Positions 30,623 to 60,377 of a stretch of DNA of 64,000 bases are shown here, one piece after another. How positions within the stretch are numbered: the stretch's first letter is position 1; the number at the start of each line of letters is the position of its first letter. Source of the stretch: Candidatus Eiseniibacteriota bacterium. GTDB taxonomy: Bacteria > Eisenbacteria > RBG-16-71-46. The notes under the pieces were generated by a model. That model did no database searches. It saw only the letters and a list, made by a program, of their open reading frames with translations, and was not told the origin of the DNA. The stretch spans positions 20 through 64,019 of the forward strand of contig JAWOLC010000052.1 of NCBI GenBank assembly GCA_033853925.1, written 5' to 3'. A program made the position numbers and the translations under genes.

Positions 30623-32092
30623 ATGGCACTCCAAGGGGCGGGGCGCACCCGACTCGCGCTCGGCGCGATCTTCGTGCTCGCGCTCCTGGTCCGCGCCGCC
30701 GTGGGCTACATGGCCCGGGGACACGGCGAGATGGAAGGCCTCGCGGACCGTTACCAGGAGGAGGCGTACGCGCTGGCCGCCGGATACGGCGCGGTGCGCC
30801 CGCTCGCGACCCGGCCTCCCGAGGTGAACCTGATCCGCCTCGCGGACAGCCTGGAAGCGCGGGGCGCCAAGCTCACGCCCCGGACGGCGCCGCCCATCCA
30901 TCGGGCCCTCTGGCGGCCCTCGACCATGCATCCGCCCGGGTACGCCGTCTTCCTCTTGGGGATCTATCGGCTGCTGGGCGAGCCGCTCATCCCCAAGGCC
31001 AAGGTCGTGCAGGTTCTGCTCGACGCCGCCTCCATCCTCCTCGTGTACTCCATCGGCAAACGCTTCGCCGGCCGCACGGTCGGGCTCCTGGCTGCCACGG
31101 CGGCGGCGCTGTCGGCGCCGGCGGCCTTCCTCGCCACCTCGAGGGTGGCCGACTCCCTGTGCCCCGCGCTCTACGTCCTCGTGTTCTGGCTGTCGGTGCG
31201 GGCCCTCGAAACCCGACGCGCGCTGTGGTTCGTCGCGGCGGGGGCCGCCTGCGGCATCATCTCCCTCATGCGCCCCGACTACCTGGTCTACCCGCCCTTC
31301 CTCTTCCTGGGCGCGCTTCTCTTCCTCCGGCAGCCGCTGGCGGCCATCAGGGGGACCGCCTTCTTCGCGGCGGCGATGTTCCTGGTGCTCCTCCCCTGGG
31401 GACTGCGCAATCAACGCGTCTTCGGGACGTTCACGGTGAGCTCCACCTGCGGGTGGGCGGGGCTCTACCAGACGATCGGACAGTTCAAGAATCCGTACGG
31501 AATCGTCTTCAGCGACGCCCTCATGGACGCGCTCGCCCGGGACGCCGGCTTCGACAGCTTCGACGATCCCGCGGCCAACAGCTACTTCAAGGGGAAGTTC
31601 CTGGCCATCGTCCGGGAGAATCCGGCCTTCCTGGCCGGCGAGGCGCTACGGCGCATCCCCATGGCCGTGGCCCCCATGTATCGCTGGGGCTACGTGAACG
31701 CGCACTACGAAGCGGGGCACGGCTTCTACGACTACCTGGCGCGCGAGGGGCTGAGCACGGGCCAGGCCGTGCGGCGTCACCCCCGAGAGCTGCTGCTCGC
31801 CTACTGGGACCGGCTGCTCTCCGGGGCGATCTCCCTCGGGCTCTTCGTGGCCAGCGTGGCGTTCCTCGTGGCCGAGCGGCGGCGCTGGCGGACGGCCGTG
31901 CTCCTGCTCCTGCCCTACGCCACGATCGTGCTGACGCACCTCGGCTACAACATGGGGGCCCGCTTCCTCGCGCCGGCGCTCTTCTGCCAGCTCGTGGTCG
32001 CGGCCTACTGGATCGTGCGCCTGTCCGGCTCGGAGCCCGTGACGCTCTGGGAGCCCGGTCGGCCTCCGTCCGTGGGCCCGGCGCGCGCCTAG
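30623..32092 (+). CDS. GT-C type integral-membrane glycosyltransferase (ArnT/PMT_2-like)
   Basis: 489 aa from MALQGAGRTRLALGAIFVLALL of ORF 30503..32092; GGAGAGGAAG SD; motif MHPPGYAVFLLG; at least 10 predicted transmembrane helices. Confidence 0.7.
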   Translation: MALQGAGRTRLALGAIFVLALLVRAAVGYMARGHGEMEGLADRYQEEAYALAAGYGAVRPLATRPPEVNLIRLADSLEARGAKLTPRTAPPIHRALWRPSTMHPPGYAVFLLGIYRLLGEPLIPKAKVVQVLLDAASILLVYSIGKRFAGRTVGLLAATAAALSAPAAFLATSRVADSLCPALYVLVFWLSVRALETRRALWFVAAGAACGIISLMRPDYLVYPPFLFLGALLFLRQPLAAIRGTAFFAAAMFLVLLPWGLRNQRVFGTFTVSSTCGWAGLYQTIGQFKNPYGIVFSDALMDALARDAGFDSFDDPAANSYFKGKFLAIVRENPAFLAGEALRRIPMAVAPMYRWGYVNAHYEAGHGFYDYLAREGLSTGQAVRRHPRELLLAYWDRLLSGAISLGLFVASVAFLVAERRRWRTAVLLLLPYATIVLTHLGYNMGARFLAPALFCQLVVAAYWIVRLSGSEPVTLWEPGRPPSVGPARA

Positions 32093-35603: not shown

Positions 35604-37052
35604 ATGAGCCTCGCGCCACGCACACTTCGGGCGCCGCGCCCGCTGCTCGGACTGCTGAACCGCCTCGGCGCGGTCCTGCTGGTCGTGATCACCGGCGCGG
35701 TGCTCGGCCTGCAGTACATCGTGCCGAACAAGCGAGTCCTCGCCGTCCTGGCCGCCACCGTGCTGTTCGGCGTGGCCTGGCGCGTGGACATGGTGTCGGG
35801 CCTGGGCGTGTTGTCGCTCGCCCTGCCCTTCCCCCGCAACACCGTGTTCGGCAACACCAACCTCGCCTTCATCCTGCTCCTGCTCGTGCTCTGGCTGCTG
35901 CGCGTCTCCCAGAGGCAGCTCCCCCTGCCGCAGCGCACGCCCGCCGACGCGCCGATGGTCGCGATCTTCATCGCCTACGTGGTGTCCTTCTACAACGTCA
36001 CCTCGAGGGAGGCTCTCGGGCTGGGCCTCCTGCGGTTCGAGATCGTCGCCGCGACCATGTTCATGTTCGTCCTGATCACCAGGAACATCCGCTCGGAGTC
36101 GGACTTCCGGCGCCTGCTGGCGTTCCAGGCCGTCACCGTGCTGACCGTCTGCCTCCTCGCGCTCTTCGAGCTGGCCCACCCGGGCGGCACGGTCGTCCCC
36201 GGCTGGATCGGCTTCTCCGGAACCGAGAACCCCGAGATCAACCTCCACACGCTCCGCGTGGGCTCGGCCTTCTTCGACTACGAGCTGCTCGCCGAGTTCT
36301 GCGCCCTCTTCGGCCTGGTCGTGGTGTTCCTCATGATCCGCGCGGAGAACGTCAGCCTGCGGGTGATGTACGGGGGCCTCCTCCTGCTCGACGTGTTCGT
36401 GCTCTTCGCCGCGGTCACCCGGGGCGCGTTCCTCGCGCTCGCCGGGGGCCTCGCCTACTTCCTGTTCCTCGTCCGGCGGCGGCTGCGCTTCGTGCCGCTG
36501 GTGCTGGCGTCGGCCGGCATCGTGGCGCTCTTCCTGGCCATGGACTTCTACGTGAGCAACTACACGCGGTCGGGGAGCGTGGTGGGCCGGTTCACCACGG
36601 GCCCGCAGTTCAAGGGCATCGTCCCCGCGGACCGGGGCGAGACGTGGACCCTGGCCTTCACGCGCATGCTCGAGCATCCCTGGATCGGCCACGGTCCCTA
36701 CTACTCGATCATGACCGGCACGAACGTCTGGACCTGGCCCCACTGCGTCTATCTGCTGATCGCGAACAACGTGGGCCTGCTCGGTCTCGCCATGTACCTG
36801 TGGCTGTTCTGGACCCTGTTCAGGCTCTCCAAGCCGCCCACGGACGATCTGCGCCGGGGCCCCATCGCCGAGAGCTATCTGATCATCGCCCGCGTCCAGA
36901 TGGTGGTGTTCCTGGTGGACGAGATCAAGATCGACTACCTGCGCAACTCCACGTATCAGTTCCAGGTCTGGATGATGTTCGCCCTGCTCATGTCCGCCCG
37001 GCAGCTCACCCACTCCCTGCGGCCCACCAACGGTCAGTCCGTGACTCGGTAG
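35604..37052 (+). CDS. O-antigen ligase / Wzy-type polymerase family membrane protein (Wzy_C domain)
   Basis: ORF 35604..37052; 10-12 transmembrane helices; RGAFLALAGGLAYFL and HPWIGHGP typical of Wzy_C. Confidence 0.75.
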   Translation: MSLAPRTLRAPRPLLGLLNRLGAVLLVVITGAVLGLQYIVPNKRVLAVLAATVLFGVAWRVDMVSGLGVLSLALPFPRNTVFGNTNLAFILLLLVLWLLRVSQRQLPLPQRTPADAPMVAIFIAYVVSFYNVTSREALGLGLLRFEIVAATMFMFVLITRNIRSESDFRRLLAFQAVTVLTVCLLALFELAHPGGTVVPGWIGFSGTENPEINLHTLRVGSAFFDYELLAEFCALFGLVVVFLMIRAENVSLRVMYGGLLLLDVFVLFAAVTRGAFLALAGGLAYFLFLVRRRLRFVPLVLASAGIVALFLAMDFYVSNYTRSGSVVGRFTTGPQFKGIVPADRGETWTLAFTRMLEHPWIGHGPYYSIMTGTNVWTWPHCVYLLIANNVGLLGLAMYLWLFWTLFRLSKPPTDDLRRGPIAESYLIIARVQMVVFLVDEIKIDYLRNSTYQFQVWMMFALLMSARQLTHSLRPTNGQSVTR

Positions 37053-37723
37053 CGGAGCAGGGTGAAGAACGCCTCGAACGCGTCACGCCACCCGATCTTC
37101 TTGCCCTGGGCGCGAGTGCGGTAGTGGAAGTGGATGGGCACCTCGAGGATGCGCTCCCCCCGGCGGGCCACGCGCGCGGTCACCTCGGGGCAGAACTCGA
37201 AGCGCTCGCAGCGCAGGGGGAGAGACTTGAGGAGGTCGGCGCGGAAGGCCTTGTAGCCGGTGGCTTCGTCGGTGAGCCGCAACCCGTACAGCGCGTTCGC
37301 CACGAAGTTCAGGACGAGCACGCCCAGCTTGTAGTGGGTGAACGGCAGGTCGTTGCGCGGGTCCAGGTAGCGGGAGCCGTAGACCACCTTGGCCTCCCCG
37401 AGCGCGATGGGCTCCACGAGCCGCGGATAGTCCTCCGGGTCGTATTCGAGGTCGGCGTCCTGGACGATGACGATGTCGCCCTTCGCCTCGGCCAGCGCGC
37501 TGCGGATCGCCGCGCCCTTGCCCCGGTTCCTGGCATGGACGAGGAGGCGGATCGGCAGCCTCGCGGCGAGCCGGGCCAGCAGCTCGCGCGTCCCGTCGGT
37601 GGAGCCGTCGTCCACGACGATGATCTCCTTGTCCAGCGGCACGGCCACCACGCGCTCCAGGAGCCGCTCCACCGTGGAGCGCTCGTTGTAGGCCGGCACG
37701 AGGATCGAGAGCAGCGGGGCCAG
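37034..37723 (-). CDS. Glycosyltransferase family 2 (DPM1-like), probable CTG start
   Basis: ORF 37034..37699 begins at GTG inside the conserved LSILVPAYNE strand; an AAGGAG SD lies 7 nt upstream of an in-frame CTG at 37723, giving (M)APLLSILVPAYNE. Confidence 0.7.
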   Translation of the reverse strand: MAPLLSILVPAYNERSTVERLLERVVAVPLDKEIIVVDDGSTDGTRELLARLAARLPIRLLVHARNRGKGAAIRSALAEAKGDIVIVQDADLEYDPEDYPRLVEPIALGEAKVVYGSRYLDPRNDLPFTHYKLGVLVLNFVANALYGLRLTDEATGYKAFRADLLKSLPLRCERFEFCPEVTARVARRGERILEVPIHFHYRTRAQGKKIGWRDAFEAFFTLLRYRVTD

Positions 37724-37839
37724 GCGGGCGCTCCTTGTGGGGGACGGGCGGCGAGGGCTCCGAGTGGGAGATGCGAGCGCCGGATTCTAGCAGAGCGCCG
37801 CGAGGGGGAGGCAGCGCCACGGGGGCCCCTGTTGCACCG

Positions 37840-37991: not shown

Positions 37992-39008
37992 CTGAGAATT
38001 CGCCCGTTCATCGCCGCTGACCGCGAGCCCTGGGACGCGTACGTGCACGCCCGGGCCGACTCGCACTTCGGCCAGCTCACGGCATGGAGGGAGCTGATCG
38101 TCGAGACCTACGGCTGCCGGCCCCACTACTGGCTGGCCGAGGACGGGGACCGGATCCGGGGCGTTCTGCCGCTCTTCGAGCGGCGCGGCCGGGAGCCGGC
38201 GCTCTTCTCGGCCCCCGGAGGGCTGCTCGCGGATGACGAGGCGAGCGCGGCCGCGCTCCTCGAGCCGGCCCGCGAGGCGCTCGCCCGGGGGAAGCTGGAG
38301 TACATCGAGCTGCGTGACCAGCGCCGGGCCTGGCCGGGCCTCGAGACGAGCCAGGAGCACGTCACGATGGTGCTGGAGCTGGCGGGCGACGCCGAGGCGC
38401 AATGGCGCGCCCTGGACGGCAAGCTGCGGAACCAGATCCGCAAGTCGGAGAAGGCGGGATTCGAGGCGCGCTGGGGTCGAGAGCTGGCGCCGCTCTTCCA
38501 CGCGGTCCTGCTCGAGAACCTGCGCGATCTGGGCACGCCCGTGCGCGATCTTCCCTACTTTCGCCGGGCGCTGGAGGTCCTGGGACCGGCGGCCGACGTG
38601 CTGGTCCTGCTCCATCGCGGCGAGCCGGCCGGCGCGATGTTCGCCGTGGCGCACGGCGAGACCATGTCCGACCCGTGGGCCTCCTCCCTGCGCCGCTATT
38701 TCGCCCTCTGCCCGAACCAGATGCTCTACTGGCTGGGGCTGCAGCGCACCCTGGCCCTGGGCCTGCGCCGCTTCGATTTCGGCCGCAGCCAGTGGCACTC
38801 GAGCACCTATCGCTTCAAGGAGCAATGGGGGGCCGTGCCCGTGCCGCTCTTCTATCAGTACGCCCTGGGCCGCGCGCGTCGCCTCCCCACCCTCGAGCGG
38901 CAGAAGGCCGGCTACGCTCTGGCGGTGACCCTGTGGCGCCGGCTACCCTTGCCGATCGCCCGCCCGCTCGGCGAGCGGGTCAAGCGACTGTTCCCGGAGG
39001 TCCTGTGA
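37992..39008 (+). CDS. FemAB-like / BioF2-like acyltransferase (PEP-CTERM-locus type), probable CTG start
   Basis: ORF 38043..39008 (GTG) lacks the family N-terminus; an in-frame CTG at 37992 gives (M)RIRPFIAADREPWDAYV, which matches the family start, with a GAGAGG SD 9 nt upstream. Confidence 0.7.
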   Translation: MRIRPFIAADREPWDAYVHARADSHFGQLTAWRELIVETYGCRPHYWLAEDGDRIRGVLPLFERRGREPALFSAPGGLLADDEASAAALLEPAREALARGKLEYIELRDQRRAWPGLETSQEHVTMVLELAGDAEAQWRALDGKLRNQIRKSEKAGFEARWGRELAPLFHAVLLENLRDLGTPVRDLPYFRRALEVLGPAADVLVLLHRGEPAGAMFAVAHGETMSDPWASSLRRYFALCPNQMLYWLGLQRTLALGLRRFDFGRSQWHSSTYRFKEQWGAVPVPLFYQYALGRARRLPTLERQKAGYALAVTLWRRLPLPIARPLGERVKRLFPEVL

Positions 39009-39045: not shown

Positions 39046-39546
39046 TTGAAGATCAGCGCACGTGTTCCCCGCCGGCAGTACGAGCGCGAGATCGCCCCCC
39101 GCAGCCTGCTGCGCACGCTCTGGCAGAAGTCCCTCCACATCCTGGCGCGCTTCTGCATCCCGCCCGGCCCGCGGCTCTGGCTCTATCGCGGCATGGGGAT
39201 CGCGATCGGCCGCCACGTCTTCGTGGGGCTCGACACCTGGCTCGACGACCAGTTCCCCGAGCTGATCCGCATCGAGGACGAGGTCACGATCTCCTTCCGC
39301 GTCATGGTCGTCGTGCACGACGACGCCCGGCGCATGGACCGGACGGCCCCGGGAGCGGGAGACGGCACGGTGGCGCCGGTGGTGCTGGAGCGGGGCTGCT
39401 ATCTCGGCGCCGGCTGCATCATCCTCCCCGGCGTCACCGTGGGGCGCGGGGCCGTGGTCGGCGCGGGAGCCGTCGTGACCCGGGACGTGCCCCCCGGCAA
39501 GCTGGCGGTTGGCGTGCCGGCCCGTGTCCTCAAGGACGTGGGTTGA
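39046..39546 (+). CDS. Hexapeptide-repeat acetyltransferase (WcaF/WbbJ-like), TTG start
   Basis: ORF 39046..39546; AAGGAG SD about 9 nt before TTG; hexapeptide repeats in the C-terminal half. Confidence 0.75.
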   Translation: MKISARVPRRQYEREIAPRSLLRTLWQKSLHILARFCIPPGPRLWLYRGMGIAIGRHVFVGLDTWLDDQFPELIRIEDEVTISFRVMVVVHDDARRMDRTAPGAGDGTVAPVVLERGCYLGAGCIILPGVTVGRGAVVGAGAVVTRDVPPGKLAVGVPARVLKDVG

Positions 39547-41573
39547 GAGGCTCGCGCGCGCCGCTGGCGCCCCTCGCCCTCGGCCTGCTCGCCGTCGCCG
39601 GCTGGCTCGTCCCCGGCGTGGCCGGTCAGGCGCTCCTCTATCCCCTGCTCGGCGTCTTTCCCGGGATGGCGATCGCCGCGCTGCTGGCCGGGGCGCGCCA
39701 GCCCCGCTGGACGCTGGGGCTGGCCTTCGCGCCGCTGGCGAGCGCGGCGGGCGGGGCCCTGCTCCTTCTCGCCGGCCTGCCGCTGGCCCCCACGGCTCTC
39801 GGCCTCGCGGCAGCAGGCTGGCTGCTGTGGACCGCGCTCGAGGCCGCGCGGGCAACGCGGACCGGCGCTCCGCCGCCCGGGCCAGGCGGCGAGCCGCGCG
39901 CCGACCTCCGCTTCCTCGTCCTCTTCGCCGTGGGGATCGCGCTGCTCACGAGCGTGCCATGGCTCCTGAACCCCTGGCTGCGCTCCCGCTCGGACGCCTG
40001 GATCCACGGCGGCATCGTCTGGGACATCGTGCGGCACGGCATTCCGCCCGAGGATCCGCGCTTCGTCGGGCTGAGGCTCAACTACGTCTGGTTCTTCAAT
40101 CTCTTCATCGCCCTCGCGACCGGGCTCACGGGGCGCGACCCGTTCGTCTTCATGATGCTCTTCAACGCCGTCAACCTGGGCGTGTGCATCGCCCTCGTGT
40201 ACCGCCTGGCGCTGGAGCTGTGGCGCGAGCGCTGGGCGGCGGCCGGAGCCGCGATCCTCGTTCCGGTCGGCCTGGGCGCCGGCAACTGGCTGCTCTGGTC
40301 GCTCCCGGTGCTGAAGAAGCTGCTCGGCTCGCCGCACGGCTGGGCGGACGCCGCGAGCCAAGTGCGCGCCCTCCGCTGGGGCACTTGTGACGTCCTCGCC
40401 AGCCTCGGCGCGCCTTTCGCCTACATGGTCAACACGCTCGACAAGTTCACGGTGGGCACGGCCCTCTCCTACGCCTGGCTGATGATGCTGGCGTACCTGT
40501 GGGCGATGGTCTCGTGGCTGGCGCGCGGGAGCCGGCGGGCCCTGGTGTGGGCCGGCGCGGGGGCGGCGGGGATGCTCTTCTTCCATGGAGTCGTCGGCTT
40601 GAGCGTGATCCCGGTGGCTCTCGGCGCCCTGGCCGTCGCCTGGCTGGCCTCGTTCCGCTGGCCATGGCTCCCCCGGGGCCGGCTGCTCGGGCTCGCCGGG
40701 GCGACGGCGGCCGGAGCCCTGCTCGCCGCGCCCTACACCCTCGCCATCTCGAGGGGCTGGTCCGCGGAGGAAACGGCAGTGCCGAACCAGTACGTCCACT
40801 TCGGCCTGAAGATGGCCTGGACGATGGCGGCGTCCCTGGCGGTCGTGGCCGCGCTCGCCGGCCGCGGCCTGCTGCGGGTGGCGCGCGAGCGGAATCCAGG
40901 CGGGGCGGCGCTCGCGCTCTTCACGCTGGGCATGGCGCTCTTCGCCCTGATCGTGCACCTCCCGCTCGACAACGAGACCAAGTTCGTGTTCGAGGTCTTC
41001 TTCCCCCTGGCGATCTTCGCGGGGCCGGCGCTGCCTCCCTTCGCGGCCGCCACCGTGCGCCGGCTGGGGGCGCCCCTGGGCGCGGCCGCCCTGGCCCTGC
41101 TCTTCCTCGTCCCGCCCGTGGTCATGCTGGCCAGCTACGCGCTGGACCCCTCCGGCCGGACCGATCCGGCGGTCGCTCCCGCCCCCGGCGAGGACGCGCT
41201 CTATGCCTGGATCCGCGCGCACGTGCCCGACGACGGCTACCTCGTGGACCGCGGCGGTCGGGATCTCGTCATGGTGAAGGCGCAGCGTCGCCTCTGGGTC
41301 GGCACGACCTCCGGGCCCGAGAGAGCCGCCTTCCCTGCACGCGAGCTGGCCCGGCGGCGGGCAGTGGAAGCGGACCTCTACGGCTCCGCGGACTCCCTGG
41401 AGGCGGACGCGCGCGCGCTGGCCGGCCTGGGGCGGCCGGCCTACGTGCTCTATCGCCTCTCCGACTTCCGGGAGGCGAAGCCCTGGCGCGCGCTCGAGGC
41501 GCGGTACCAGAGGTTCATGACCGTGTACACGACCAGGGAGTTCCGGCTCTACCGCGTGCGGAGCGAGCGGTGA
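39543..41573 (+). CDS. Polytopic membrane protein, uncharacterised family (paralog A; possible GT-C-like enzyme)
   Basis: ORF 39543..41573, TTG start overlapping the upstream stop (TTGA); at least 12 transmembrane helices; conserved motif NPWLRSRSDAWIHGGIVWDIVRHGIPPEDP; C-terminal soluble domain. Confidence 0.7.
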   Translation: MRGSRAPLAPLALGLLAVAGWLVPGVAGQALLYPLLGVFPGMAIAALLAGARQPRWTLGLAFAPLASAAGGALLLLAGLPLAPTALGLAAAGWLLWTALEAARATRTGAPPPGPGGEPRADLRFLVLFAVGIALLTSVPWLLNPWLRSRSDAWIHGGIVWDIVRHGIPPEDPRFVGLRLNYVWFFNLFIALATGLTGRDPFVFMMLFNAVNLGVCIALVYRLALELWRERWAAAGAAILVPVGLGAGNWLLWSLPVLKKLLGSPHGWADAASQVRALRWGTCDVLASLGAPFAYMVNTLDKFTVGTALSYAWLMMLAYLWAMVSWLARGSRRALVWAGAGAAGMLFFHGVVGLSVIPVALGALAVAWLASFRWPWLPRGRLLGLAGATAAGALLAAPYTLAISRGWSAEETAVPNQYVHFGLKMAWTMAASLAVVAALAGRGLLRVARERNPGGAALALFTLGMALFALIVHLPLDNETKFVFEVFFPLAIFAGPALPPFAAATVRRLGAPLGAAALALLFLVPPVVMLASYALDPSGRTDPAVAPAPGEDALYAWIRAHVPDDGYLVDRGGRDLVMVKAQRRLWVGTTSGPERAAFPARELARRRAVEADLYGSADSLEADARALAGLGRPAYVLYRLSDFREAKPWRALEARYQRFMTVYTTREFRLYRVRSER

Positions 41574-42433
41574 ACCCGGCGGCGTTCTCGCTCGACATCG
41601 AGGACTGGTATCACTCGGAGCTGATCGACCGACGCGACCGGCACGGCCACGGCATGACCGTGGTGCGTCCCGGCACCGAGGCGCTGCTCGACCTCTTCGC
41701 CAGCCGGGGCGTGCGCGCCACCTTCTTCGTGCTCGGCGACGTGGCGCGAGAGCATCCCGACCTCGTCCAGCGTCTCGCCGCCGAGGGACACGAGCTGGGC
41801 TGCCACGGCATGGACCACCGCCCGCTCTGGGAGCTGGACCCCGCGGGATTTCGCCGGCAGCTCGTCGAGTTTCGCCGGGTCGTCGAGGGAATCCTCGGAG
41901 GCTTCCCCGTCACCGGATTCCGCGCGCCGGTTTTCAGCCTCGATCCCTCCACGGCCTGGGCGCTGGAGGTGCTGCGCGAGCAGGGCTACCGCTACGACTC
42001 GAGCATCTTCCCCGCCAAGGTGCCGACCTACGGCATGTCGCGGGCACCCCTGACCATCTACCGGCCGGCGCACGACGATCTCGCGCGCCACGACCCCCAG
42101 GGAGAGGTCGTGGAATTCCCGGTGGCCGTCCAGCAGTGGGGGCCGCTGCGGGTGCCGGTGGGGGGCGGCTTCTACCTGCGCGCTCTTCCACTGTGGATGG
42201 TCCGCCGCTCGCTCGACGAGATCCTCAAGGAGCGTCCGGTGGCCCTCTACCTGCACCCCCGGGAGTACGTGCCCGAGCAGCGGCGCCTGCGCCTGGCCCC
42301 CTGGCAGGCGCTCGTCACCTACACCAACCTGCACACCGTCCGGCCGAAGCTGGAAAGCCTGTTCTCCCGCTACGCCTGGGTGACGATGCGCGAGGCTCTG
42401 GAGCGGGGCGGCCACCTGCCCGCGGGCGCGTGA
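41570..42433 (+). CDS. Polysaccharide deacetylase (CE4) of the PEP-CTERM-locus subfamily (with DUF3473-like C-terminus)
   Basis: In-frame part of ORF 40499..42433 from GTG 41570 (GTGA overlap); NodB motifs TFFVLGDVA and HELGCHGMDH. Confidence 0.85.
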   Translation: MNPAAFSLDIEDWYHSELIDRRDRHGHGMTVVRPGTEALLDLFASRGVRATFFVLGDVAREHPDLVQRLAAEGHELGCHGMDHRPLWELDPAGFRRQLVEFRRVVEGILGGFPVTGFRAPVFSLDPSTAWALEVLREQGYRYDSSIFPAKVPTYGMSRAPLTIYRPAHDDLARHDPQGEVVEFPVAVQQWGPLRVPVGGGFYLRALPLWMVRRSLDEILKERPVALYLHPREYVPEQRRLRLAPWQALVTYTNLHTVRPKLESLFSRYAWVTMREALERGGHLPAGA

Positions 42434-42603
42434 TGCCCGGCGCCGCTTCTCCCGGCGCGCGCGCCCGGGCTCGGGCGGTGGCCGTCACGCGGGGCCTGGC
42501 CTATGATCGCGGAGCCGCCGGCGGCCGGCCGGGCCCGCAGCCCGCGCCGGGCCTCGCGACTCCTCGGCTTCCTGCCTTCGCCTCGGGACACGCGCGCTAG
42601 ACC

Positions 42604-44661
42604 ATGCCGATCGCCAAGCGCTCCTGGACTCCGTCCCTGCTCGTCCTGCTGGGCCTCGCTTCCCTGGCCGCGCGGGCGCTGCCGCCGGGCCTGCGCGAGG
42701 TGGCCTTCTATCCGGCGCTCGGGCTCTTCCCCGGCTTGCTCGTCGCCGAGCTGCTGGCGGGCCGCGAGCGGGAGTTCGATCGCTGGATCCTGGGGCTGGC
42801 CCTCTCGCCGCTCGTCGCCGCCCTCGCCGGAATCGGATTGTGCCGGCTCGGAGTGAGCCTGGCAGTGGGCACCTCGCTCATCGCCGGCGTGAGCTTCGGC
42901 GGCTGTCTGATCGCCCAGGTCGGGCGCCGGCTCCGGCGCCCCTCTTCCTCCGAGTTCCCCGAGCGACGAAGCTGGCAGTGGCTCGGCTGGGCTCTGGGGT
43001 TCGCCGGCGTGCTCGCCCTGCTCCCGATCGTCAATCCGTGGCTGCTCGTCCGCGCCGACTCGTGGTTCCACGCCGGCATGGTCTGGGAGATCGTGAGGCG
43101 CGGCATCCCCCCGGAGACGCCGAGCGTGGCCGGCCCTCCCGCCAACTACATGTGGACCTACAACTTCTTTCTCGCCCAGTCCACGAGCCGGGGGTGCGAT
43201 CCGTTCGTGCTGATGGCGGTCCTGAACGTGGTGTCCGGCTTCCTCCTCGTCGCCATCGTGCGGCGCCTGGCGTTGCTGGCGTGGCGCAGCGAGCAGGCGG
43301 CCACCGGGGCCGCCGCCTTGGCTCTCGTGGGCCTCGACGCCGGCACCTGGCTGCTCTGGCCCCTGAGCCCGCTGCGGGCCCTGACGGGACAGGTGCGGGG
43401 CGGGGCGGAGCTGACCCGGCAGCTCCACAACGTCCACCTCCTCGATGCGGGCGTGCTCTACTTCGTCGCCGCGCCCTTCTCGTCCGTCGCGAGCCTCATC
43501 GACAAGCTCACGGAGGGTACGGCGCTCGGCTACGCCTGGATCCTCCTGCTGCTCCTCCTGTGGAGCGCGCTGGCCTGGCTCGAGCAGGGGCGCAGGAGAA
43601 CCCTGGGCGTGGCGGCCCTGGCGACCCTCGGGCTCTTCTTCCTCCACGCCGTGGTCGCCCTCTCGGTCGTGCCGGTGATGCTCGTGACGCTGGCGGCGAT
43701 CTGGCTGCTGCGCGGCAGACAGACGTGGCTCCCGCCCAGGGGACGTGTGCTCTCCCTCCTGCTCGCGGTCGCCGTCGGGGCGGGACTGGGGATGCCCTAC
43801 CTCTGGTCGGTCATGCGGGCGTGGACGCGCGCGGACTCCGGTCCGCGCTTCCACTACCTCCCCCCCGACGCCTTCATGCTCTGGACCTTGCTGACGACCG
43901 TGGGAGTCGTGGGCTGGCTGGCCTGGCGGCCGGCGCTGCGCTCGTTCCGCGAGCGGCTCGCTCTCCCCGCCGTGGTGACGGCCTTCGCCCTCTTCATGAC
44001 GCTCTACGCCCTGGCCGTGCGGCTGCCCGTGCCGACCGACACGAAGCTCGTCGTCCAGGTCTTCTTCCCGCTCGCGCTCCTGGCCGGCGCCGGCTTCCTC
44101 CCGGGCGTGGCCCGGCTCGCCGCACGGCGGGGGCGCGGCTTCGCCGCCGCGGTGCTGGCTCTGGTGTTCGGCGTGGGCCCGCTCCTGACCGTGATCGGCT
44201 TCGCCGCGGATCCGAGCCGGGGGAGCGACCCGCACTTCCTCGAGACGCCGGCGGAGCGCCGCCTCGACGCGTGGGTCCGGGAGCGCACCCCGGTGGACGC
44301 CGTGCTCCTCGACGGGGGCTTCCGCAATCTCCTCACCGTCCGCGGGCAGCGGCGGCAGTACCTGGCCTCGGGTTACGAGCCTTTCGTCCTCGGCTTCCCC
44401 GCGGCGGAGCTGGCGCTGCGAACGGCCGTCATGCAGGATCTCTACGGCCCGGGCGCCGATCTTGCCGCGGACGCGGAGAAGCTCCGCGCGCTGGGAGCGC
44501 CGGTCTTCGTCGTGTACCGCCCCGAGGATCGCCGGGGTCCGCGGACCCCGTGGTCGGGGCCCGCGGGCCGCGGGGATCTCTACACGCCGGTCTACGCCGC
44601 CGACGGCTTCCACGTCTTCCGCGTGCGGGAGACGGCCGGAGCCCTCCCGCCCGCGGAATAA
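42604..44661 (+). CDS. Polytopic membrane protein, uncharacterised family (paralog B of 39543..41573)
   Basis: ORF 42604..44661; collinear with paralog A, including IVNPWLLVRADSWFHAGMVWEIVRRGIPPETP. Confidence 0.75.
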   Translation: MPIAKRSWTPSLLVLLGLASLAARALPPGLREVAFYPALGLFPGLLVAELLAGREREFDRWILGLALSPLVAALAGIGLCRLGVSLAVGTSLIAGVSFGGCLIAQVGRRLRRPSSSEFPERRSWQWLGWALGFAGVLALLPIVNPWLLVRADSWFHAGMVWEIVRRGIPPETPSVAGPPANYMWTYNFFLAQSTSRGCDPFVLMAVLNVVSGFLLVAIVRRLALLAWRSEQAATGAAALALVGLDAGTWLLWPLSPLRALTGQVRGGAELTRQLHNVHLLDAGVLYFVAAPFSSVASLIDKLTEGTALGYAWILLLLLLWSALAWLEQGRRRTLGVAALATLGLFFLHAVVALSVVPVMLVTLAAIWLLRGRQTWLPPRGRVLSLLLAVAVGAGLGMPYLWSVMRAWTRADSGPRFHYLPPDAFMLWTLLTTVGVVGWLAWRPALRSFRERLALPAVVTAFALFMTLYALAVRLPVPTDTKLVVQVFFPLALLAGAGFLPGVARLAARRGRGFAAAVLALVFGVGPLLTVIGFAADPSRGSDPHFLETPAERRLDAWVRERTPVDAVLLDGGFRNLLTVRGQRRQYLASGYEPFVLGFPAAELALRTAVMQDLYGPGADLAADAEKLRALGAPVFVVYRPEDRRGPRTPWSGPAGRGDLYTPVYAADGFHVFRVRETAGALPPAE

Positions 44662-44667
44662 GCCGCC

Positions 44668-46851
44668 TCAGGGCGTGCCCACCTTGCCGGCCGCGGCGCC
44701 CGTGGGCTTCGCCGGGGCCGGCTGGCGCCAGCTCACGCCCAGCTCGGCGAACAGGAACGAGTAGACGTCCGCGTTCAGCTCGTTGCGCGCCTTGAGCGGC
44801 GTGCCGATGTGGCCGGTGCCCTTCTCGGCGCGGAGCAGGACGGGCAAGCCGGAGGTGCTCGCCGCCTGGAGCCGTGCGGTCATCTTCCGCGAGTGCATCG
44901 GGTTCACGCGCGGGTCGTTCGAGCCGGTCGTGAACAGGACCGCCGGGTACTTCGTGCCGTCCACGACGTGATGATAGGGCGAGTAGGCGTAGAGGGCGGC
45001 GAATTGCACGGAGTCCTTCACGCTGCCGTACTCGGTCGTGTTGAAGAGGCCGTTCGACTCCAGCTCGCTCCTCAGCATGTCGTAGACGCCCACGCTCGAC
45101 ACCACCGCCCGGAAGGCGTCGGGGTGCTGAGTGATCATGGCCCCCATCAGGATGCCGCCGTTGCTCCCCCCCTGGCAGGCGAGCCTCGCCGGCGAGGTGT
45201 AGTGGTGATCCACCAGCCAGCGGGCGCAGGCGTAGAAGTCGTCGAAGACGTTCTGCTTCTTCGTCAGCATGCCGCCCTCGTGCCAGGCGTCGCCGAACTC
45301 GCCTCCGCCGCGGATGTGCGCGACGGCGTAGATGCCACCCTGGTCGAACCACACCCGCCGCGTGGCCACGAACGACGGACGCTGGCTGATCGCGTAGCCG
45401 CCGTACCCGTAGAGCAGCGTCGGGGCCGTTCCGTCCAGGCGCGTTCCCTTGCGCATGAGGATCGTGAGGGGGACGCGGGTGCCGTCCTTCGAGACGGCCG
45501 TGGCCCGCTGCACCTCGATGTCCGCGTAGCTCACCGGGGAGCGGCGGACGAGGGCGGTCGTCCCCACGGTCTTCCGCGCCGGGTCGTAGGTCACCCAGCG
45601 AGGCGGCTCCGTCCAGCGGGTGATGCCCAGCGCGACCTTGCCGCCGCCGGTCGGCACCATGCCGCCGACCGTGGTCTGCTCGGGCAGCGGCACCGTGCCC
45701 CTCGCCTGGCCGTCGCTCGTGAAGATCCGGACCTGGGAGGGGCCGCCGAGGATCTCCTCCACGTAGAGCAGGTCCTCCGAGGGCGTGAACCACTCGATGC
45801 CCGCCTGCCCCTCGGGGACCAGCACGGCGGCCTGGCTCAGCCCCTCGGCGGGCAGCGGAAGCCGCAGCACCTTCCCGTTCGGGGCGTCCATGCGCGACAG
45901 GAGGTAGAGGACCCCGGGACCGAAGCCGGCGTCCACCACGCGATCGGCGAAGGTCGAGAGCGGGTGGAACACGCCGTCGGCCTGCGACGCCAGCCACATC
46001 ATGTGGTCGCCGCCGTCGCCGTTCAGCACGTCGGCCAGCACCCACTTCCCGTCCTTCGAGGACGAGAGCTTGATCTCCGCGATCTTCGGGAACTCCTTCC
46101 CCACGGCGTAGGTGTCCGAGGCTTCCGGAGTGCCCAGGCGGTGGAAGTACACCTGCTGGTAGAAGGGCAGGTCCTCGTCGGGCCGCTCGCCGGGTGCCGG
46201 ATAGCGCGTCCGCCAGTACCCCGTCCCGTCGGCGTTCCACGCCAGGCTGCCACCGGCCGTGCCGCCATTCGTGCGCGGCACCTCGTCGCTCAGCTTCCGC
46301 CCCGTCGCCACTTCCCAGACGTGCACCGTGCCCGACTCGGTGCCGCCCTTGGAGAGCGAGACGGCGACCTTCGCCCCGTCGCGCGAGGGCACGTAGAAGT
46401 CGATGGTCGTGGCGCCGCTCGGGTCGATCGCGTTCGGGTCCACGAGCACCTTCTCCCCCGTCGGTCGCACGAGCGAGCGCAGGGTCACGAGGACGGGCTG
46501 CTGCTTGGGCGGATCGTCCTTGAGCGCGAAGTAGATGCCGCCCGCGCGCTCCACGGCGAACCAGCCGGGCGTGGGCTTCTCGGTGATGGACTCCACCTGG
46601 CGCAGAACGGCGGCGCGCATGGGCAGGCTGTCCAGGAAGGCCCGCGCCACGGCGCTCTCCGAATCGCTCCAGGCCGGCACCGCCGGATCGTGCCAGTCCT
46701 CGAGCCAGCGGTAGTCATCGGTGACCGTCACGCCCCAGTAGTGGTCCTCCACCGGGCGCTTCGGAGTGAGCGGCAGGGGCGGCCCGGCGACAGCCACCAA
46801 CGTGAGGGAGGCGATTGCCGCAGCCGCGGCGAAGATCGTCCACATGCGCAT
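44668..46851 (-). CDS. Prolyl oligopeptidase (S9A family serine peptidase), secreted
   Basis: 727 aa from MRMWTIFAAAAAIASLTLVAVA (signal peptide; AAGGAGA SD) of ORF 44668..46941; catalytic GGSNGG motif and C-terminal alpha/beta hydrolase. Confidence 0.85.
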   Translation of the reverse strand: MRMWTIFAAAAAIASLTLVAVAGPPLPLTPKRPVEDHYWGVTVTDDYRWLEDWHDPAVPAWSDSESAVARAFLDSLPMRAAVLRQVESITEKPTPGWFAVERAGGIYFALKDDPPKQQPVLVTLRSLVRPTGEKVLVDPNAIDPSGATTIDFYVPSRDGAKVAVSLSKGGTESGTVHVWEVATGRKLSDEVPRTNGGTAGGSLAWNADGTGYWRTRYPAPGERPDEDLPFYQQVYFHRLGTPEASDTYAVGKEFPKIAEIKLSSSKDGKWVLADVLNGDGGDHMMWLASQADGVFHPLSTFADRVVDAGFGPGVLYLLSRMDAPNGKVLRLPLPAEGLSQAAVLVPEGQAGIEWFTPSEDLLYVEEILGGPSQVRIFTSDGQARGTVPLPEQTTVGGMVPTGGGKVALGITRWTEPPRWVTYDPARKTVGTTALVRRSPVSYADIEVQRATAVSKDGTRVPLTILMRKGTRLDGTAPTLLYGYGGYAISQRPSFVATRRVWFDQGGIYAVAHIRGGGEFGDAWHEGGMLTKKQNVFDDFYACARWLVDHHYTSPARLACQGGSNGGILMGAMITQHPDAFRAVVSSVGVYDMLRSELESNGLFNTTEYGSVKDSVQFAALYAYSPYHHVVDGTKYPAVLFTTGSNDPRVNPMHSRKMTARLQAASTSGLPVLLRAEKGTGHIGTPLKARNELNADVYSFLFAELGVSWRQPAPAKPTGAAAGKVGTP

Positions 46852-47258
46852 CAGCACTTCTCCTTCTCGCGGGCCGGAGGGTCCGCGGCCCAAGAGGGAC
46901 GTAGCGGCGCGCGTTCGCGCCGCGGCGCGGTCGGCGACCACCGGGGTCGCCAGCCGAAGCGCTCCAGGTCGATCCTACCTCGGGCGTCGAACCTCACGCC
47001 CTCGCCTTCGAGCCGGAGACGCTGGGTGACGTCGTCGCCGCGCCCGGGGGGCAGGCTGATCCCGCCGCGCGCATTGACGACACGGTGCCAGGGAGCGTAG
47101 CTCGCCTGCGGCAGCGCGTGAAGGGCGTAGCCCACCTGCCGGGCGTGCCCCTCCAGCCCGGCCAGCCTGGCCACCTGCCCGTACGTCGCGACGCGTCCCC
47201 GCGGGATCCGGCGGACGACGGCGTAGACGCGCTCCCACCGGCTCGGTGCGCGCTGCAC
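46851..47258 (-). CDS. Alkyltransferase-like (ATL) protein - MGMT DNA-binding domain with Trp replacing the active-site Cys
   Basis: ORF 46851..47315; motif PWHRVV instead of PCHRV; probable GTG start at 47258 after GAAGGGGA; TGATG overlap with the oligopeptidase start. Confidence 0.65.
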   Translation of the reverse strand: MQRAPSRWERVYAVVRRIPRGRVATYGQVARLAGLEGHARQVGYALHALPQASYAPWHRVVNARGGISLPPGRGDDVTQRLRLEGEGVRFDARGRIDLERFGWRPRWSPTAPRRERAPLRPSWAADPPAREKEKC

Positions 47259-47302: not shown

Positions 47303-48412
47303 TCAGCGCGCCCATCTCTCGAGAACCCCCTCGAGGCGTGGGCGCACCCGCTCCCAGGCGAATCCCTCGGCGGTGCGGCGGGCGCCGGCGCCCAGCCTGC
47401 AGGCGAGATCCGGTCGCGAGAGCACGCGGGCCAGCGCCTCCCGCAGGGCGGCGGGGTCGCCGGGAGGCACGAGCAGCCCGTTCACCCCGTCCACGATCAG
47501 CTCACGCACGCCGGCGACCGGCGTGCCGATCACGGGCCGCCCCCACGACATGGCCTCGAGGAGCACGTTGGGCAGGCCTTCGCCGCTGCGCGCCGCGAGC
47601 ACGACACAGGCCGCGCCGGCGTACAGGGCGCCCAGCCCGGGGCGGCCCACGAAGCCCGCGAATTCCACGCTCGCCGACCGCCGACGGGCCAGCTCCTCCA
47701 GCCGGCTCCGTTCCGGTCCTGTTCCGGCGATGATCAGCCGACGGCTCTGCCCGGCGGCCGCCTCGATCGCCACGTCCATGCCCTTGTCGCGAATGAGTCG
47801 CCCCACCGCCAGCACCGGGCCCGTGGCCACGTCCGCCGCGGGCAGGGGCGGGTCGGGCAGGTCGAGCCCGTTCGGCACCACGTCGAGGTGGGAGTCCACT
47901 TCGGCGCGCGCCCACGGCGCGTACCGCTCCAACTCCCGCAGCAGCGCCTCGCGCCCCGCAGAGGTCTGGACGAGCACGCCGCGGGCCGCTCTCCAGGTCC
48001 GGCAATTGAGGGCGCCCTTCAGCCCGGCTTCCCCCAGACGATACTCACCCTCCCCGCGGATCCAGACGATCGCGGGAACGCCCAGCCGCCGCTGCGCCCG
48101 CACGCCCACCCAGCCACTGATGAACGACTGGAAGCAGACCAGCAGGTCCGGCCGTGGCTGCAGGGCGTCCAGCGCTCGGCCCGTGCGGTGCGCGTCGACC
48201 AGAGCCCGCAGGCCCCGGGCCGGGAACAAGGGCAGGCGAATCACCTCGTAGCCGTCCCGCGCCTCGCGCCCGGGCGGGGCCGGAGGCTCCTGCCGCGTGA
48301 TCACGACCACCCGGTGGCGATCGCTCAGACGGCGCGCCCACCCCTCGGCCTGGTGCTCCGCTCCTCCCTGGGGTCCGGGAGGAAACCGGCCGACCAGGAA
48401 GGCGAGGTTCAC
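47303..48412 (-). CDS. Glycosyltransferase family 4
   Basis: C-terminal part of ORF 47303..48745 from GTG 48412 (M-NLAFLVGRFPP); GTGA overlap with the asnB-like stop. Confidence 0.8.
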   Translation of the reverse strand: MNLAFLVGRFPPGPQGGAEHQAEGWARRLSDRHRVVVITRQEPPAPPGREARDGYEVIRLPLFPARGLRALVDAHRTGRALDALQPRPDLLVCFQSFISGWVGVRAQRRLGVPAIVWIRGEGEYRLGEAGLKGALNCRTWRAARGVLVQTSAGREALLRELERYAPWARAEVDSHLDVVPNGLDLPDPPLPAADVATGPVLAVGRLIRDKGMDVAIEAAAGQSRRLIIAGTGPERSRLEELARRRSASVEFAGFVGRPGLGALYAGAACVVLAARSGEGLPNVLLEAMSWGRPVIGTPVAGVRELIVDGVNGLLVPPGDPAALREALARVLSRPDLACRLGAGARRTAEGFAWERVRPRLEGVLERWAR

Positions 48413-50328
48413 GACGGCTCGCTCGGCCGCAGCGAGGCCAGCGGCGCCCCCAGCTCTTCTCGCGGCCGGTCCAGGTAGGTCCGGGCCCACAGCTCGAGGC
48501 AGACCAGCACCCAGGTCTGACGCGTGCGGCGCTCGTCCCTGGAGCCGCTGTCGCCGAGCTGCCGCTCGATCGCGGCCGTGTCCAGCCAGCCCCGGCGCCG
48601 GGTGACGGGATCCAGGAGCACCTCCCGCGCCAGCCGCGAGAAGCCGCCCCCGAACCAGTGCACGAGCGGCACGCCGAAGCCCTGCTTGCCGCGGGCCACG
48701 ATCTCCGGGGGCAGCAGCGGGCGGGCACACTCGCGCAGGATCCACTTGCCCACGTTCCCCCGCAGCTTAAGGTGGAAGGGAATGCGCGCCGCGAACTCCT
48801 GCAGCGGATGGTCGAGGAGCGGCTCGCGCGATTCCAGCGAGTGGATCATCGTCGTCCGGTCCACCTTGGCCATCACGTCGTCGACCAGGTAGGTCTGAGC
48901 GTCCAGGGGCAGGAGGGCGGGAATCTCCCCGAGACCCGCCGCCGCCGCGCGGTGGATCGCTCGCGGCGTGGCCCCCGCGTCGTAGTCGGCGACGGCCGCC
49001 CGCAGCTCCGGCGTCAGCATCGCCGCCAGCTCGAGGGGCGGGAAGGTGGCCTCGACGTGCAGGTGCCGCGCGCCGACATCCATCGCCACGCGCCGGAGCT
49101 TGCGCCCCAGCGGGTGATCGGGATGCATCCAGCCGGCCGGCCGTGCCAAGCCCCGGCGCAGGGCCGCCGGGAGGAAGTCCAGAGCCGCGTAACGCCGGGC
49201 CCACGCGTAGGTGGAGTAGCCGCCGAACGTCTCGTCGCCACCATCGCCCGAGAGGCTCACGGTGACGTGCCGCCTGGCCATCTGCGCCAGGTAGTACATG
49301 GGGATCATCGAGGCGTCGGCGTGCGGCTCGTCCATCTGCCAGATCAGGGTCGGCAGGAGCTCGAGGGCGTGCGCCTTCACGACCAGCTCGTGGTGCTCCG
49401 TGCCGAGGTGCCGCGCCACCTGCCGGGCGTGCTCGACCTCGGTGAAGTCCTCCTCCTCGAAGCCGATGGTGAAGGTCTTCACCCGCTCCGGGGCCACCTG
49501 CTGCATGAGCGCGACGACCACGCTGGAATCCAGGCCGCCGGAGAGAAACGCCCCCAGGGGAACGTCGGAGTGCAGGCGCAGGCGCACGGCCTCCCGGAGC
49601 AGGCTCGTGAGGCGCTCGCGATACCAGTCCTCGGGATGGCCGGCGTCCACTTCCGTGGGGAGCTGCCAGTAGCGCTCCAGCCGCGCCCCGTTCGCGTCGC
49701 AGATCAGCCGGTGGGCTGCCGGCAGCTTGCGCACGCCGCGCCAGATCGTGCGGGGCTGCGCCACGTACTGGTACGAGAGGTAGTCGGCCACGGCACACTC
49801 GTCGATCTCCCGCGGGATCGAGGGGTCCAGCATCAGGCCCTTGAGCTCCGAGGCGAAGACGAGGCGCCGCCCGTCGTCGTGATAGTAGAGGGGCTTCACC
49901 CCGAAGCGGTCTCGCCCGAGCACCAGCCGCCGCCGCCGGCGATCGAAGAGGCCGAAGGCGAACATGCCGCGCAGGCGGCTGAACATCTCGTCGCCGTACT
50001 CCTCGTAGAGGTGGAGCAGAGCCTCGGTGTCGCTCGTCCCCCGCAGGCGGTGGCCGCGAGCCACCAACCCGGGAGCGAGGTCGGGCCAGTCGTACAGCTC
50101 GCCGCTGTAGACGACCCAGACGCTCTCGTCCTCGTTGGCCATGGGCTGGCTCCCCGTCGGGCTCAGGTCGAGGATGGCCAGCCGCCGATGGGCGAAGGCC
50201 ACGTCCCCGTCCACCCACGTTCCCGCGCCGTCCGGACCGCGGTGCCGCATGGCCCACGCCTGCCGCTCGAGCAGAACGGAGTCGGCCGCCCCACCCCCAT
50301 AGTGGAAGACTCCGCTAATCCCGCACAC
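48409..50328 (-). CDS. Asparagine synthetase B-family glutamine amidotransferase (exosortase/EPS-locus-associated type)
   Basis: ORF 48409..50328; MCGISG N-terminal nucleophile Cys; SGGLDSS PP-loop. Confidence 0.9.
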   Translation of the reverse strand: MCGISGVFHYGGGAADSVLLERQAWAMRHRGPDGAGTWVDGDVAFAHRRLAILDLSPTGSQPMANEDESVWVVYSGELYDWPDLAPGLVARGHRLRGTSDTEALLHLYEEYGDEMFSRLRGMFAFGLFDRRRRRLVLGRDRFGVKPLYYHDDGRRLVFASELKGLMLDPSIPREIDECAVADYLSYQYVAQPRTIWRGVRKLPAAHRLICDANGARLERYWQLPTEVDAGHPEDWYRERLTSLLREAVRLRLHSDVPLGAFLSGGLDSSVVVALMQQVAPERVKTFTIGFEEEDFTEVEHARQVARHLGTEHHELVVKAHALELLPTLIWQMDEPHADASMIPMYYLAQMARRHVTVSLSGDGGDETFGGYSTYAWARRYAALDFLPAALRRGLARPAGWMHPDHPLGRKLRRVAMDVGARHLHVEATFPPLELAAMLTPELRAAVADYDAGATPRAIHRAAAAGLGEIPALLPLDAQTYLVDDVMAKVDRTTMIHSLESREPLLDHPLQEFAARIPFHLKLRGNVGKWILRECARPLLPPEIVARGKQGFGVPLVHWFGGGFSRLAREVLLDPVTRRRGWLDTAAIERQLGDSGSRDERRTRQTWVLVCLELWARTYLDRPREELGAPLASLRPSEPS

Positions 50329-60368: not shown

Positions 60369-60377
60369 GGAGGCTCC

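Follow-up and report, generated by a model that had tools for sequence, protein, structure and literature searches.

Tandem paralogs of a new membrane protein family with a predicted GT-C glycosyltransferase fold flank a polysaccharide deacetylase in a Candidatus Eiseniibacteriota genome

Two large membrane proteins are encoded in tandem in a 64,000-nucleotide (nt) stretch of a Candidatus Eiseniibacteriota genome (contig JAWOLC010000052.1, assembly GCA_033853925.1), referred to here as the window. Paralog A (39543-41573, + strand, TTG start) has 676 amino acids (aa) and paralog B (42604-44661, + strand, ATG start) has 685; both are predicted GT-C membrane proteins of the same architecture, with 15 transmembrane (TM) helices followed by a periplasmic C-terminal domain. 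The open reading frame (ORF) between them encodes a 287-aa polysaccharide deacetylase (41570-42433, + strand) that combines Polysacc_deac_1 (PF01522, 5e-21) with DUF3473 (PF11959, 4e-28), resembles VimE and the enzymes of XrtA systems and carries no signal peptide. Several of the mechanically called stop-to-stop ORFs in this window of about 73% G+C overextend; A and B themselves are present in a public protein collection with identical boundaries. An earlier note on this DNA, made from the letters alone, had described A and B as collinear tandem paralogs, and BLASTP bears this out, aligning the two proteins at 41% identity over 650 residues with 9 gaps (E 5e-122). Judged from this alignment, they are true paralogs, collinear from end to end and far beyond chance similarity.

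Paralog A is tightly embedded in its operon. Its start codon overlaps the stop of an upstream hexapeptide acetyltransferase gene (39046-39546, + strand, 166 aa; Pfam Hexapep) in TTG(A) at 39543-39546, and its own stop overlaps the start of the deacetylase gene in GTG(A) at 41570-41573. Both overlaps, which the same note had taken as translational coupling, were read directly in the sequence. A 170-nt gap separates B from the deacetylase stop, so B is not coupled. A scan of 37-45.2 kb for promoters and terminators was uninformative, with no promoter-like site and a single terminator-like site, located inside B, which is fewer than chance would give.

The family is not covered by any curated model that A or B reaches. 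Paralog A had no Pfam match at E up to 1, and the sole Pfam match of B was DUF6541 (PF20176) with 21.1 bits against a cutoff of 29, spanning residues 41-167 and the N-terminal 139 model positions. NCBIfam gave nothing relevant for either protein, and neither phmmer searches with A and B nor a 26-sequence profile (at E up to 10) matched any PDB sequence. The proteins had been called an unrecognized family that could not be placed with PMT, Wzy, YfhO, STT3 or exosortases, and the searches agree: models of Wzy_C or the O-antigen ligase-polymerases, YfhO, and STT3 or the oligosaccharyltransferase (OST) domain gave no Pfam match to A or B even at E 1, and exosortase (XrtA/EpsH) models matched neither protein in NCBIfam or Pfam. 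Exosortases have conserved Cys, Arg and His residues; Cys is absent from the conserved positions of the present family in an alignment of 150 sequences. A divergent ArnT/PMT_2 origin was considered and rejected at the sequence level, because a comparison of the family profile with the window’s own PMT_2 protein by hhalign returned a probability of just 0.4%; the PMT_2 model does recognize both genuine PMT_2 genes of the window.

Among 51 diverse members of the family, weak and scattered matches were obtained to DUF2298 (7 members, best E 3e-7 in Pfam), TIGR03662 Chlor_Arch_YYY (6 members, best E 3e-5 in NCBIfam), DUF6798 (4) and DUF6541 (3), with DUF2298 and TIGR03662 giving no match to A and B themselves. 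These are the sole curated models with any signal for the family, and since DUF6541, DUF2298 and DUF6798 are all of unknown function, no functional information is gained from them. Ten diverse cluster representatives bear the name ‘hypothetical protein’ or no name, the databases searched offer no other name for the family, and text searches of the literature for DUF6541, DUF2298 and Eisenbacteria with glycosyltransferase gave no relevant paper.

Structure prediction was considerably more informative. The AlphaFold2 models of A and B are confident (predicted local distance difference test scores of 87.5 and 90.2; predicted TM-scores of 0.91 and 0.92), and their TM modules can be superimposed on solved GT-C enzymes of the GT-C_A fold class. 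A structure search with each model likewise returned the GT-C fold, in line with the GT-C-like nature that the earlier note had suspected, and no transporter, Wzy/WaaL or exosortase family competes with this assignment. On the basis of these models, A and B very probably adopt the GT-C fold.

Topology was derived by taking the 15 hydrophobic helices from the model, where at least 12 had been expected, and by counting charges in 19 close homologs. On the N-terminal side of the membrane, short loops average 0.8-1.6 Lys or Arg residues, as against 0-0.2 on the opposite side, and this asymmetry places the N-terminus in the cytoplasm and the C-terminus outside. By this assignment, the long loops 144-199 and 243-307 (B numbering) and the C-terminal domain are periplasmic, and four N-terminal TM helices precede the helix that enters the first of these loops.

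This first long loop holds the motif that the earlier note had singled out as common to both proteins; together with a second block, PF..V..L.DK.T.GTAL.YAW, it is indeed present in both sequences in the BLASTP alignment. In B, the loop (43033-43122, + strand, residues 144-173) follows TM5 and reads NPWLLVRADSWFHAGMVWEIVRRGIPPETP, with Asp152 at nt 43057-43059 and His156 at nt 43069-43071. In A, it extends over 39969-40058 (+ strand), where the motif reads NPWLRSRSDAWIHGGIVWDIVRHGIPPEDP from nt 39969 and takes the form NPWL..RSDAWIHGGIVWDIVRHGIPPEDP, with Asp151 at nt 39993-39995 and His155 at nt 40005-40007, as placed by the alignments, including that of 150 sequences, and by the topology. Asp152 stands 9 residues past TM5 within a 56-residue loop, and the cytoplasmic loop 110-124 ahead of TM5 is rich in Lys and Arg. 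By the positive-inside rule, the D..H motif is thus placed in the periplasm, because it lies in the first long loop after the TM helix that leaves this cytoplasmic loop; a periplasmic position of the conserved Asp and His had been proposed as a check on the GT-C reading.

To assess conservation, 150 full-length sequences, each representing a different 50%-identity cluster, were aligned with MAFFT. Asp152 is present in 150/150 sequences and His156 in 149/150, six further residues (Y182, G262, K301, H348, K481 and R583) are 99% conserved, and position 570 is Asp or Glu in 142/150. All invariant polar residues are located on the side assigned to the periplasm. GT-C enzymes such as ArnT and the OSTs have an invariant Asp soon after a TM helix, with Lys, Arg, His and Tyr residues around the acceptor or the lipid phosphate. 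As in class GT-C_A, an acidic residue is conserved in the first long loop of the family outside the cytoplasm, and Asp152 would be the candidate catalytic residue.

The closest structural relatives of the models are OSTs, a result that the earlier note had not foreseen, and the likeness includes the C-terminal soluble domain. This domain comprises residues 535-676 in A (41145-41573, + strand) and residues 536-685 in B (44209-44661, + strand); it is predicted to be periplasmic and has the core fold of the OST C-terminal globular domain in both, and in B it carries a ‘WvReRTPvDAV..D’ motif and no WWDYG. STT3, AglB and PglB (GT66) further share with the family an N-in, C-out arrangement, a conserved Asp in the first external loop and a faint sequence motif directly after the last TM helix. 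They differ in that structure-based identity is 9-14% and OSTs have 13 TM helices instead of 15, four helices at the N-terminus of A and B being extra. At the sequence level, the invariant residues K301, H348 and K481 seem unlike the OST motifs DxD and TIxE/SVSE of external loops 2 and 5.

These findings raise the question of whether A and B could act as OSTs, transferring a finished glycan en bloc from undecaprenyl pyrophosphate to a protein or another periplasmic acceptor, as do STT3, AglB and PglB. The structural neighbors and the type of C-terminal domain speak for this reading, as does the acidic residue D570 near the expected start of WWDYG. The stretch after the last TM helix also matches STT3A residues 503-525, which we take to lie immediately before WWDYG, and fungal STT3, although these matches of sub-domain profiles are not significant (E 1.7 and 0.9-2.8, respectively). 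However, WWDYG itself is absent from A, from B and from all 51 C-terminal domains listed, and since it is missing in every member examined, the family is not an OST by the OST-defining motif. Moreover, the stretch is closer to DPY19, a user of dolichyl-phosphate mannose (Dol-P-Man), and no candidate acceptor protein or sequon was identified. The operon partners of the family, a small family 2 glycosyltransferase (GT2) and a flippase candidate, suggest a monophosphate-linked monosaccharide donor, unlike the pyrophosphate-linked oligosaccharide of OSTs. Taken together with the missing STT3 and OST-domain Pfam matches, we regard en bloc transfer as unlikely.

DPY19 is the one solved structure to which the family shows a sequence match close to significance. 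A profile of the last TM helix and the start of the C-terminal domain found Caenorhabditis elegans DPY19 as its best PDB match (E 0.006), aligning the DPY19 stretch ‘LFDWIQHNTKQDAVF’ with ‘LYaWIReNTPrDAVF’, the motif that the family shows just past this helix. With Dol-P-Man, DPY19 uses a lipid-monophosphate sugar, the class of donor that we propose for A and B. Unlike them, it is eukaryotic and modifies tryptophan in proteins, with an overall identity to the family of about 10-12%, and no WxxW-type acceptor logic is evident for A and B. The C-terminal domain of the family probably shares a common origin with that of the STT3/DPY19 branch.

A word-index search among 5.8 billion proteins retrieved just 26 relatives, from which the family would seem extremely rare. 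This impression was overturned by an exhaustive hidden Markov model (HMM) search, in which, with clustering at 50% identity, 1,771 cluster representatives reached E 1e-3 or better and 450 reached E 1e-30 or better. Taxonomically, close relatives are nearly confined to metagenome-assembled genomes (MAGs) of Candidatus Eisenbacteria: 46 close-family loci were found among 185,579 species-representative genomes, 29 of them labeled Candidatus Eisenbacteria (phylum Candidatus Eiseniibacteriota), 14 from unclassified MAGs and one each from bins labeled Terriglobales, Limnocylindria and Methylomirabilota. Identity patterns separate A-like and B-like orthologous groups, from which it follows that the duplication is old; the two types presumably differ in donor or acceptor specificity.

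Outside the interval that had been reported for A and B, the window encodes a third, distant member of the superfamily, paralog C (50315-53053, - strand), a protein of 912 aa with an extra C-terminal extension of about 190 aa. The family profile A3 aligned with C in hhalign at a probability of 97.7% (E 1.6e-12, 586 columns), and C retains the D...H loop motif and a ‘W..H.PPDDVV’ motif. C has no match in Pfam, and its positional ortholog in one related locus (L051) is a DUF6541 (PF20176) protein. In 16 related loci, C is conserved in a GT4 / AsnB-like / C arrangement convergent to the A-type gene and its deacetylase. Immediately upstream of C lie genes for an S-adenosylmethionine-dependent methyltransferase (52891-53676, - strand) and a GT2 (53619-54599, - strand). 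A methyltransferase similar to this one precedes LPG_synthase_TM, PMT_2 and A-type genes in three related loci (L053-L055), which hints that the sugar is methylated.

The genomic context of the family was surveyed by tblastn with the window proteins, combined with precomputed gene calls. In about 30 loci, the DUF3473 deacetylase gene comes immediately after the A-type gene. A-type genes are usually preceded either by FemAB-like and hexapeptide genes, an order conserved from the window in related loci, or by GT2 (325 aa), LPG_synthase_TM and PMT_2 genes; in the latter case, the GT2, LPG_synthase_TM, PMT_2, A-type and deacetylase genes form operons with 4-nt overlaps. Convergent to them stand GT4 and AsnB-like genes and a gene for a protein of about 900 aa, the counterpart of C. 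B-type genes follow GT2 and Wzy_C genes, in some cases with PMT_2 or AsnB-like genes as well. No locus in the survey other than the present one holds A-type and B-type genes together, and the tandem arrangement is therefore peculiar to this genome. Accordingly, the description of A and B as flanking the deacetylase is accurate here and does not extend to relatives, as in more than 50 related loci the deacetylase is paired with the A-type only.

In several loci (L050 and L052-L056), a GT2, a flippase candidate and the GT-C protein are encoded in one operon, the trio expected of a three-component system, with the flippase role assigned from context. In the locus of one member (P0022), the family gene comes after GT2, DUF2304 and LPG_synthase_TM genes in that order. 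Distant relatives keep such associations. One of about 26% identity (P0071) belongs to an overlapping four-gene operon with a GT2 (227 aa), DUF2304 and LPG_synthase_TM. Another, of 24% identity (P0170; locus L057, positions 10001-14017, from a 270-kb metagenomic contig), has genes for a DUF3473 deacetylase and an ATP-grasp protein behind it, with a FemAB-like gene nearby. This suggests that an ATP-grasp ligase may serve as an alternative to the FemAB-like enzyme for adding an amino acid to the deacetylated sugar. Judging from these neighborhoods, in which it recurs with a small GT2 and often with DUF2304, the LPG_synthase_TM protein, which resembles the MprF flippase, may be the lipid-sugar flippase of these systems.

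In the window, A and B belong to a polysaccharide biosynthesis island that reaches from about 14.5 kb to the window end. It includes sugar-nucleotide enzymes, seven GT4/GT2 genes, a UDP-sugar dehydrogenase, a Bac_transf initiating transferase, two DegT aminotransferases, an acetyltransferase of the PglD/NeuD type, three Wzx-type flippase-like genes, a Wzy_C gene (35604-37052; Pfam) and an LPG_synthase_TM gene (58975-60486, - strand; PF03706, 3e-48), the candidate lipid-sugar flippase. Two PMT_2 (ArnT-like) GT-C genes, at 26160-27857 (- strand) and 30494-32092 (+ strand), bring the GT-C-fold proteins of the island to five, namely A, B, C and these two.

With such neighbors, A and B might instead polymerize, ligate or export the exopolysaccharide of the locus, in the manner of Wzy, WaaL or Wzx, and not transfer side chains or single sugars. 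They are large polytopic proteins of a Wzx/Wzy-type locus, and in several contigs the B-type gene stands directly after a Wzy_C gene. Yet the window encodes Wzy_C and Wzx-like proteins separately, no polymerase, ligase or flippase model of Pfam or NCBIfam matches A or B, and Wzy, WaaL, SEDS and MOP/Wzx are missing from the significant fold matches, so that we consider this reading very improbable indeed.

Two GT2 genes of the island are candidates for supplying a lipid-linked donor, at 1.8 and 9 kb from A. The nearer one (37034-37786, - strand) encodes a 250-aa enzyme of the AglJ/ArnC/DPM1 type (Pfam Glycos_transf_2, 9e-37; sub-cutoff NCBIfam matches to AglJ at 7e-34 and to the ArnC-type model PRK10714 at 5.5e-21), and is a candidate donor synthase; it is transcribed divergently from the operon of the FemAB-like gene, the hexapeptide gene and A. 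The second (29095-30330, + strand) resembles a polyprenyl-phosphate hexose synthase (NCBIfam dolichyl-phosphate hexose transferase, 6e-33; AglJ, 2.5e-32) and is directly followed by the second PMT_2 gene. By tblastn, its orthologs head the conserved locus in most of the related MAGs and are 63-79% identical, with 57% in L025.

Between the nearer GT2 and the hexapeptide gene lies a gene for a FemAB/VimA-like acyl (aminoacyl) transferase (38043-39008, + strand; Pfam Acetyltransf_6), which scored 230 bits against TIGR03019 (FemAB, XrtA/PEP-CTERM-associated; cutoff 260). The deacetylase reached 218 bits against TIGR03006 (cutoff 276), and an AsnB/WbpS-like glutamine amidotransferase (48409-50328, - strand; Pfam Asn_synthase, 9e-98) reached 561 bits against TIGR03108 (cutoff 817). 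Together with a GT4, these genes (38043-39008, 41570-42433 and 47303-50328) thus show XrtA/PEP-CTERM-associated NCBIfam matches, all below the cutoff. The mechanically called GT4 ORF (47303-48766, - strand) shares about 360 nt with the 3′ part of the AsnB-like gene, and its true start is probably near 48400.

At a distance of 6 nt from the stop of B, the opposite strand carries an S9 prolyl oligopeptidase gene (44668-46974, - strand). A partnership with B was considered and rejected, as tblastn found no counterpart in any related locus; lacking a counterpart beside the family elsewhere, this gene seems to have been inserted locally along with B.

From the fold and these gene arrangements, we suggest that A and B are inner-membrane enzymes by which a sugar carried on polyprenyl phosphate is handed to a glycan acceptor in the periplasm, which we hold to be somewhat more probable than all alternatives combined. 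The donor class, a lipid-monophosphate sugar, can be proposed with slightly greater assurance from the operon context, and the GT2 and flippase-candidate operons favor the polyprenyl-phosphate-sugar donor that the earlier note had put forward. The sugar is probably amino or aminoacylated and unmasked by the cytoplasmic deacetylase, with the exact sugar and acceptor being a matter of speculation.

If the Gtr, Arn and Wbp/Vim pathways are taken as models and combined with the operon context, the following sequence of steps can be envisaged. The cytoplasmic aminotransferase, acetyltransferase, AsnB-like amidotransferase and FemAB/VimA-like aminoacyl transferase would build a modified sugar, and the small GT2 would place a sugar on polyprenyl phosphate. 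The DUF3473 deacetylase would unmask the amine at the cytoplasmic face, and the flippase candidate (LPG_synthase_TM or DUF2304) would bring the lipid-linked sugar to the periplasmic face. The GT-C protein would then pass the sugar to the acceptor, most probably the Wzx/Wzy-type polysaccharide or lipopolysaccharide (LPS)-like glycan of the locus itself. In this last step, Asp152 would be catalytic, and His156, Lys301, His348, Lys481, Tyr182 and Arg583 could hold the lipid phosphate or the acceptor.

Several observations weigh against this proposal. The best structural matches are OSTs, which use lipid-pyrophosphate oligosaccharide donors, and this kinship leaves some room for a lipid-pyrophosphate donor here. 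The candidate donor synthase at 37034-37786 has a close ortholog (70-73% identity) in 4 related loci only, and in the window the flippase candidate LPG_synthase_TM lies about 14 kb from B. The hexapeptide enzyme could be an O-acetyltransferase: its NCBIfam matches, at about 1e-16 and sub-cutoff, are to WcaF, NeuD and YvoF-like models, with LacA also among the best. In that case, the idea of an N-acetyl group that protects and is later removed becomes weaker.

The XrtA-associated character of the neighbors admits a different role, in which A and B would be non-catalytic. In Porphyromonas, the VimE deacetylase, the FemAB-like VimA and the WbpS amidotransferase make a 2-N-seryl-3-N-acetyl-glucuronamide ‘linking sugar’ for protein attachment, and the same gene set stands beside an exosortase in other phyla, e.g., in Nitrosomonas (PMC7468200). 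An accessory GT-C protein could present such a lipid-linked sugar, comparable with PIG-U/GAB1 of the glycosylphosphatidylinositol (GPI) transamidase, and fill the place of XrtA in FemAB/deacetylase/AsnB loci. The sub-cutoff matches to TIGR03019, TIGR03006 and TIGR03108 fit this picture, and no exosortase gene was found among the window ORFs scanned. On the other hand, the near-absolute conservation of a periplasmic Asp, two His, two Lys, an Arg and a Tyr across 150 divergent representatives is enzyme-like, and catalytic GT-C enzymes score far above PIG-U in the comparison. The loci have no conserved transpeptidase partner, a simple, crude regular expression found no PEP-CTERM-type C-terminal tail in the window ORFs or in 57 loci, and many members occur with just a GT2 and a flippase candidate. 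An accessory role is accordingly highly unlikely in our estimate.

A bolder variant keeps the catalytic activity. An OST-derived enzyme without WWDYG, placed in a Wbp/Vim-type cassette, could attach secreted proteins, or another constituent of the envelope, to a linking sugar or glycan that bears an amine in Eisenbacteria and their relatives. This idea draws on OSTs as the closest structures, on the XrtA-associated neighbors and on the failure to find an exosortase gene or a PEP-CTERM-type tail, and we regard it as a long shot. If true, it would constitute a previously unknown glycosyltransferase-based route of attachment to exopolysaccharide, replacing the XrtA/PorU transpeptidation step.

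Acting outside the cytoplasm, GT-C enzymes add sugars to LPS, to cell-wall glycans and to glycoproteins. Defining the donor and acceptor of the transfer proposed for A and B would explain what a large set of dark membrane proteins does (about 1,800 clusters in metagenomes at 50% identity), clarify the product of the widespread FemAB/deacetylase/AsnB cassette in XrtA-type exopolysaccharide loci, and offer an initial look at how the uncultured phylum Candidatus Eisenbacteria builds its envelope glycans. The invariant set D152, H156, Y182, K301, H348, K481 and R583 is open to direct mutagenesis.

Among known systems, the closest in logic are the Arn and Gtr pathways. A synthase, a flippase and a GT-C enzyme form an established three-component route for periplasmic glycan decoration, and new GT-C families are still being founded singly, as with GT136 in 2024 (PMC11127046). 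In the Arn pathway, which comprises ArnC, ArnD, ArnE/F and ArnT and serves to transfer aminoarabinose to lipid A, the lipid-linked sugar is deformylated before flipping and transfer by the GT-C enzyme (PMC12690121). The A and B loci likewise contain a polyprenyl-phosphate GT2, an enzyme of the deacetylase superfamily proposed to act before flipping, a flippase candidate and a GT-C protein, and the DegT aminotransferase and acetyltransferase of the window are comparable with ArnB and ArnA. The components nevertheless differ: ArnT has no detectable sequence relation to A and B and a different C-terminal domain, the deacetylase is of the DUF3473/XrtA-associated type and not ArnD, and the flippase candidate is LPG_synthase_TM or DUF2304 in place of the small multidrug resistance (SMR) pair of Arn.

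The Wbp/Vim pathway resembles the window in gene content. Counterparts are found for VimA (FemAB-like), VimE (the deacetylase), WbpS (AsnB-like), WbpD (an acetyltransferase) and WbpE (an aminotransferase), along with GT4 genes and a UDP-sugar dehydrogenase, and the VimE/VimA chemistry of deacetylation followed by aminoacylation matches the DUF3473 deacetylase and the aminoacyl-adding enzymes to which the family is persistently linked. In contrast, the Wbp/Vim and XrtA systems have no described GT-C protein at the position of A and B and use a sortase-like enzyme (PorU or XrtA) instead.

Together, our results place A and B in a kind of system that is already known, a probable GT-C glycosyltransferase in a three-component or Arn-like setting; the family itself is new. 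Its architecture joins a C-terminal domain of the OST type with the operon logic of monosaccharide-phosphate transfer. The four extra N-terminal helices, the OST-type domain without WWDYG and the persistent link to a DUF3473 deacetylase distinguish it from the systems with which it was compared.

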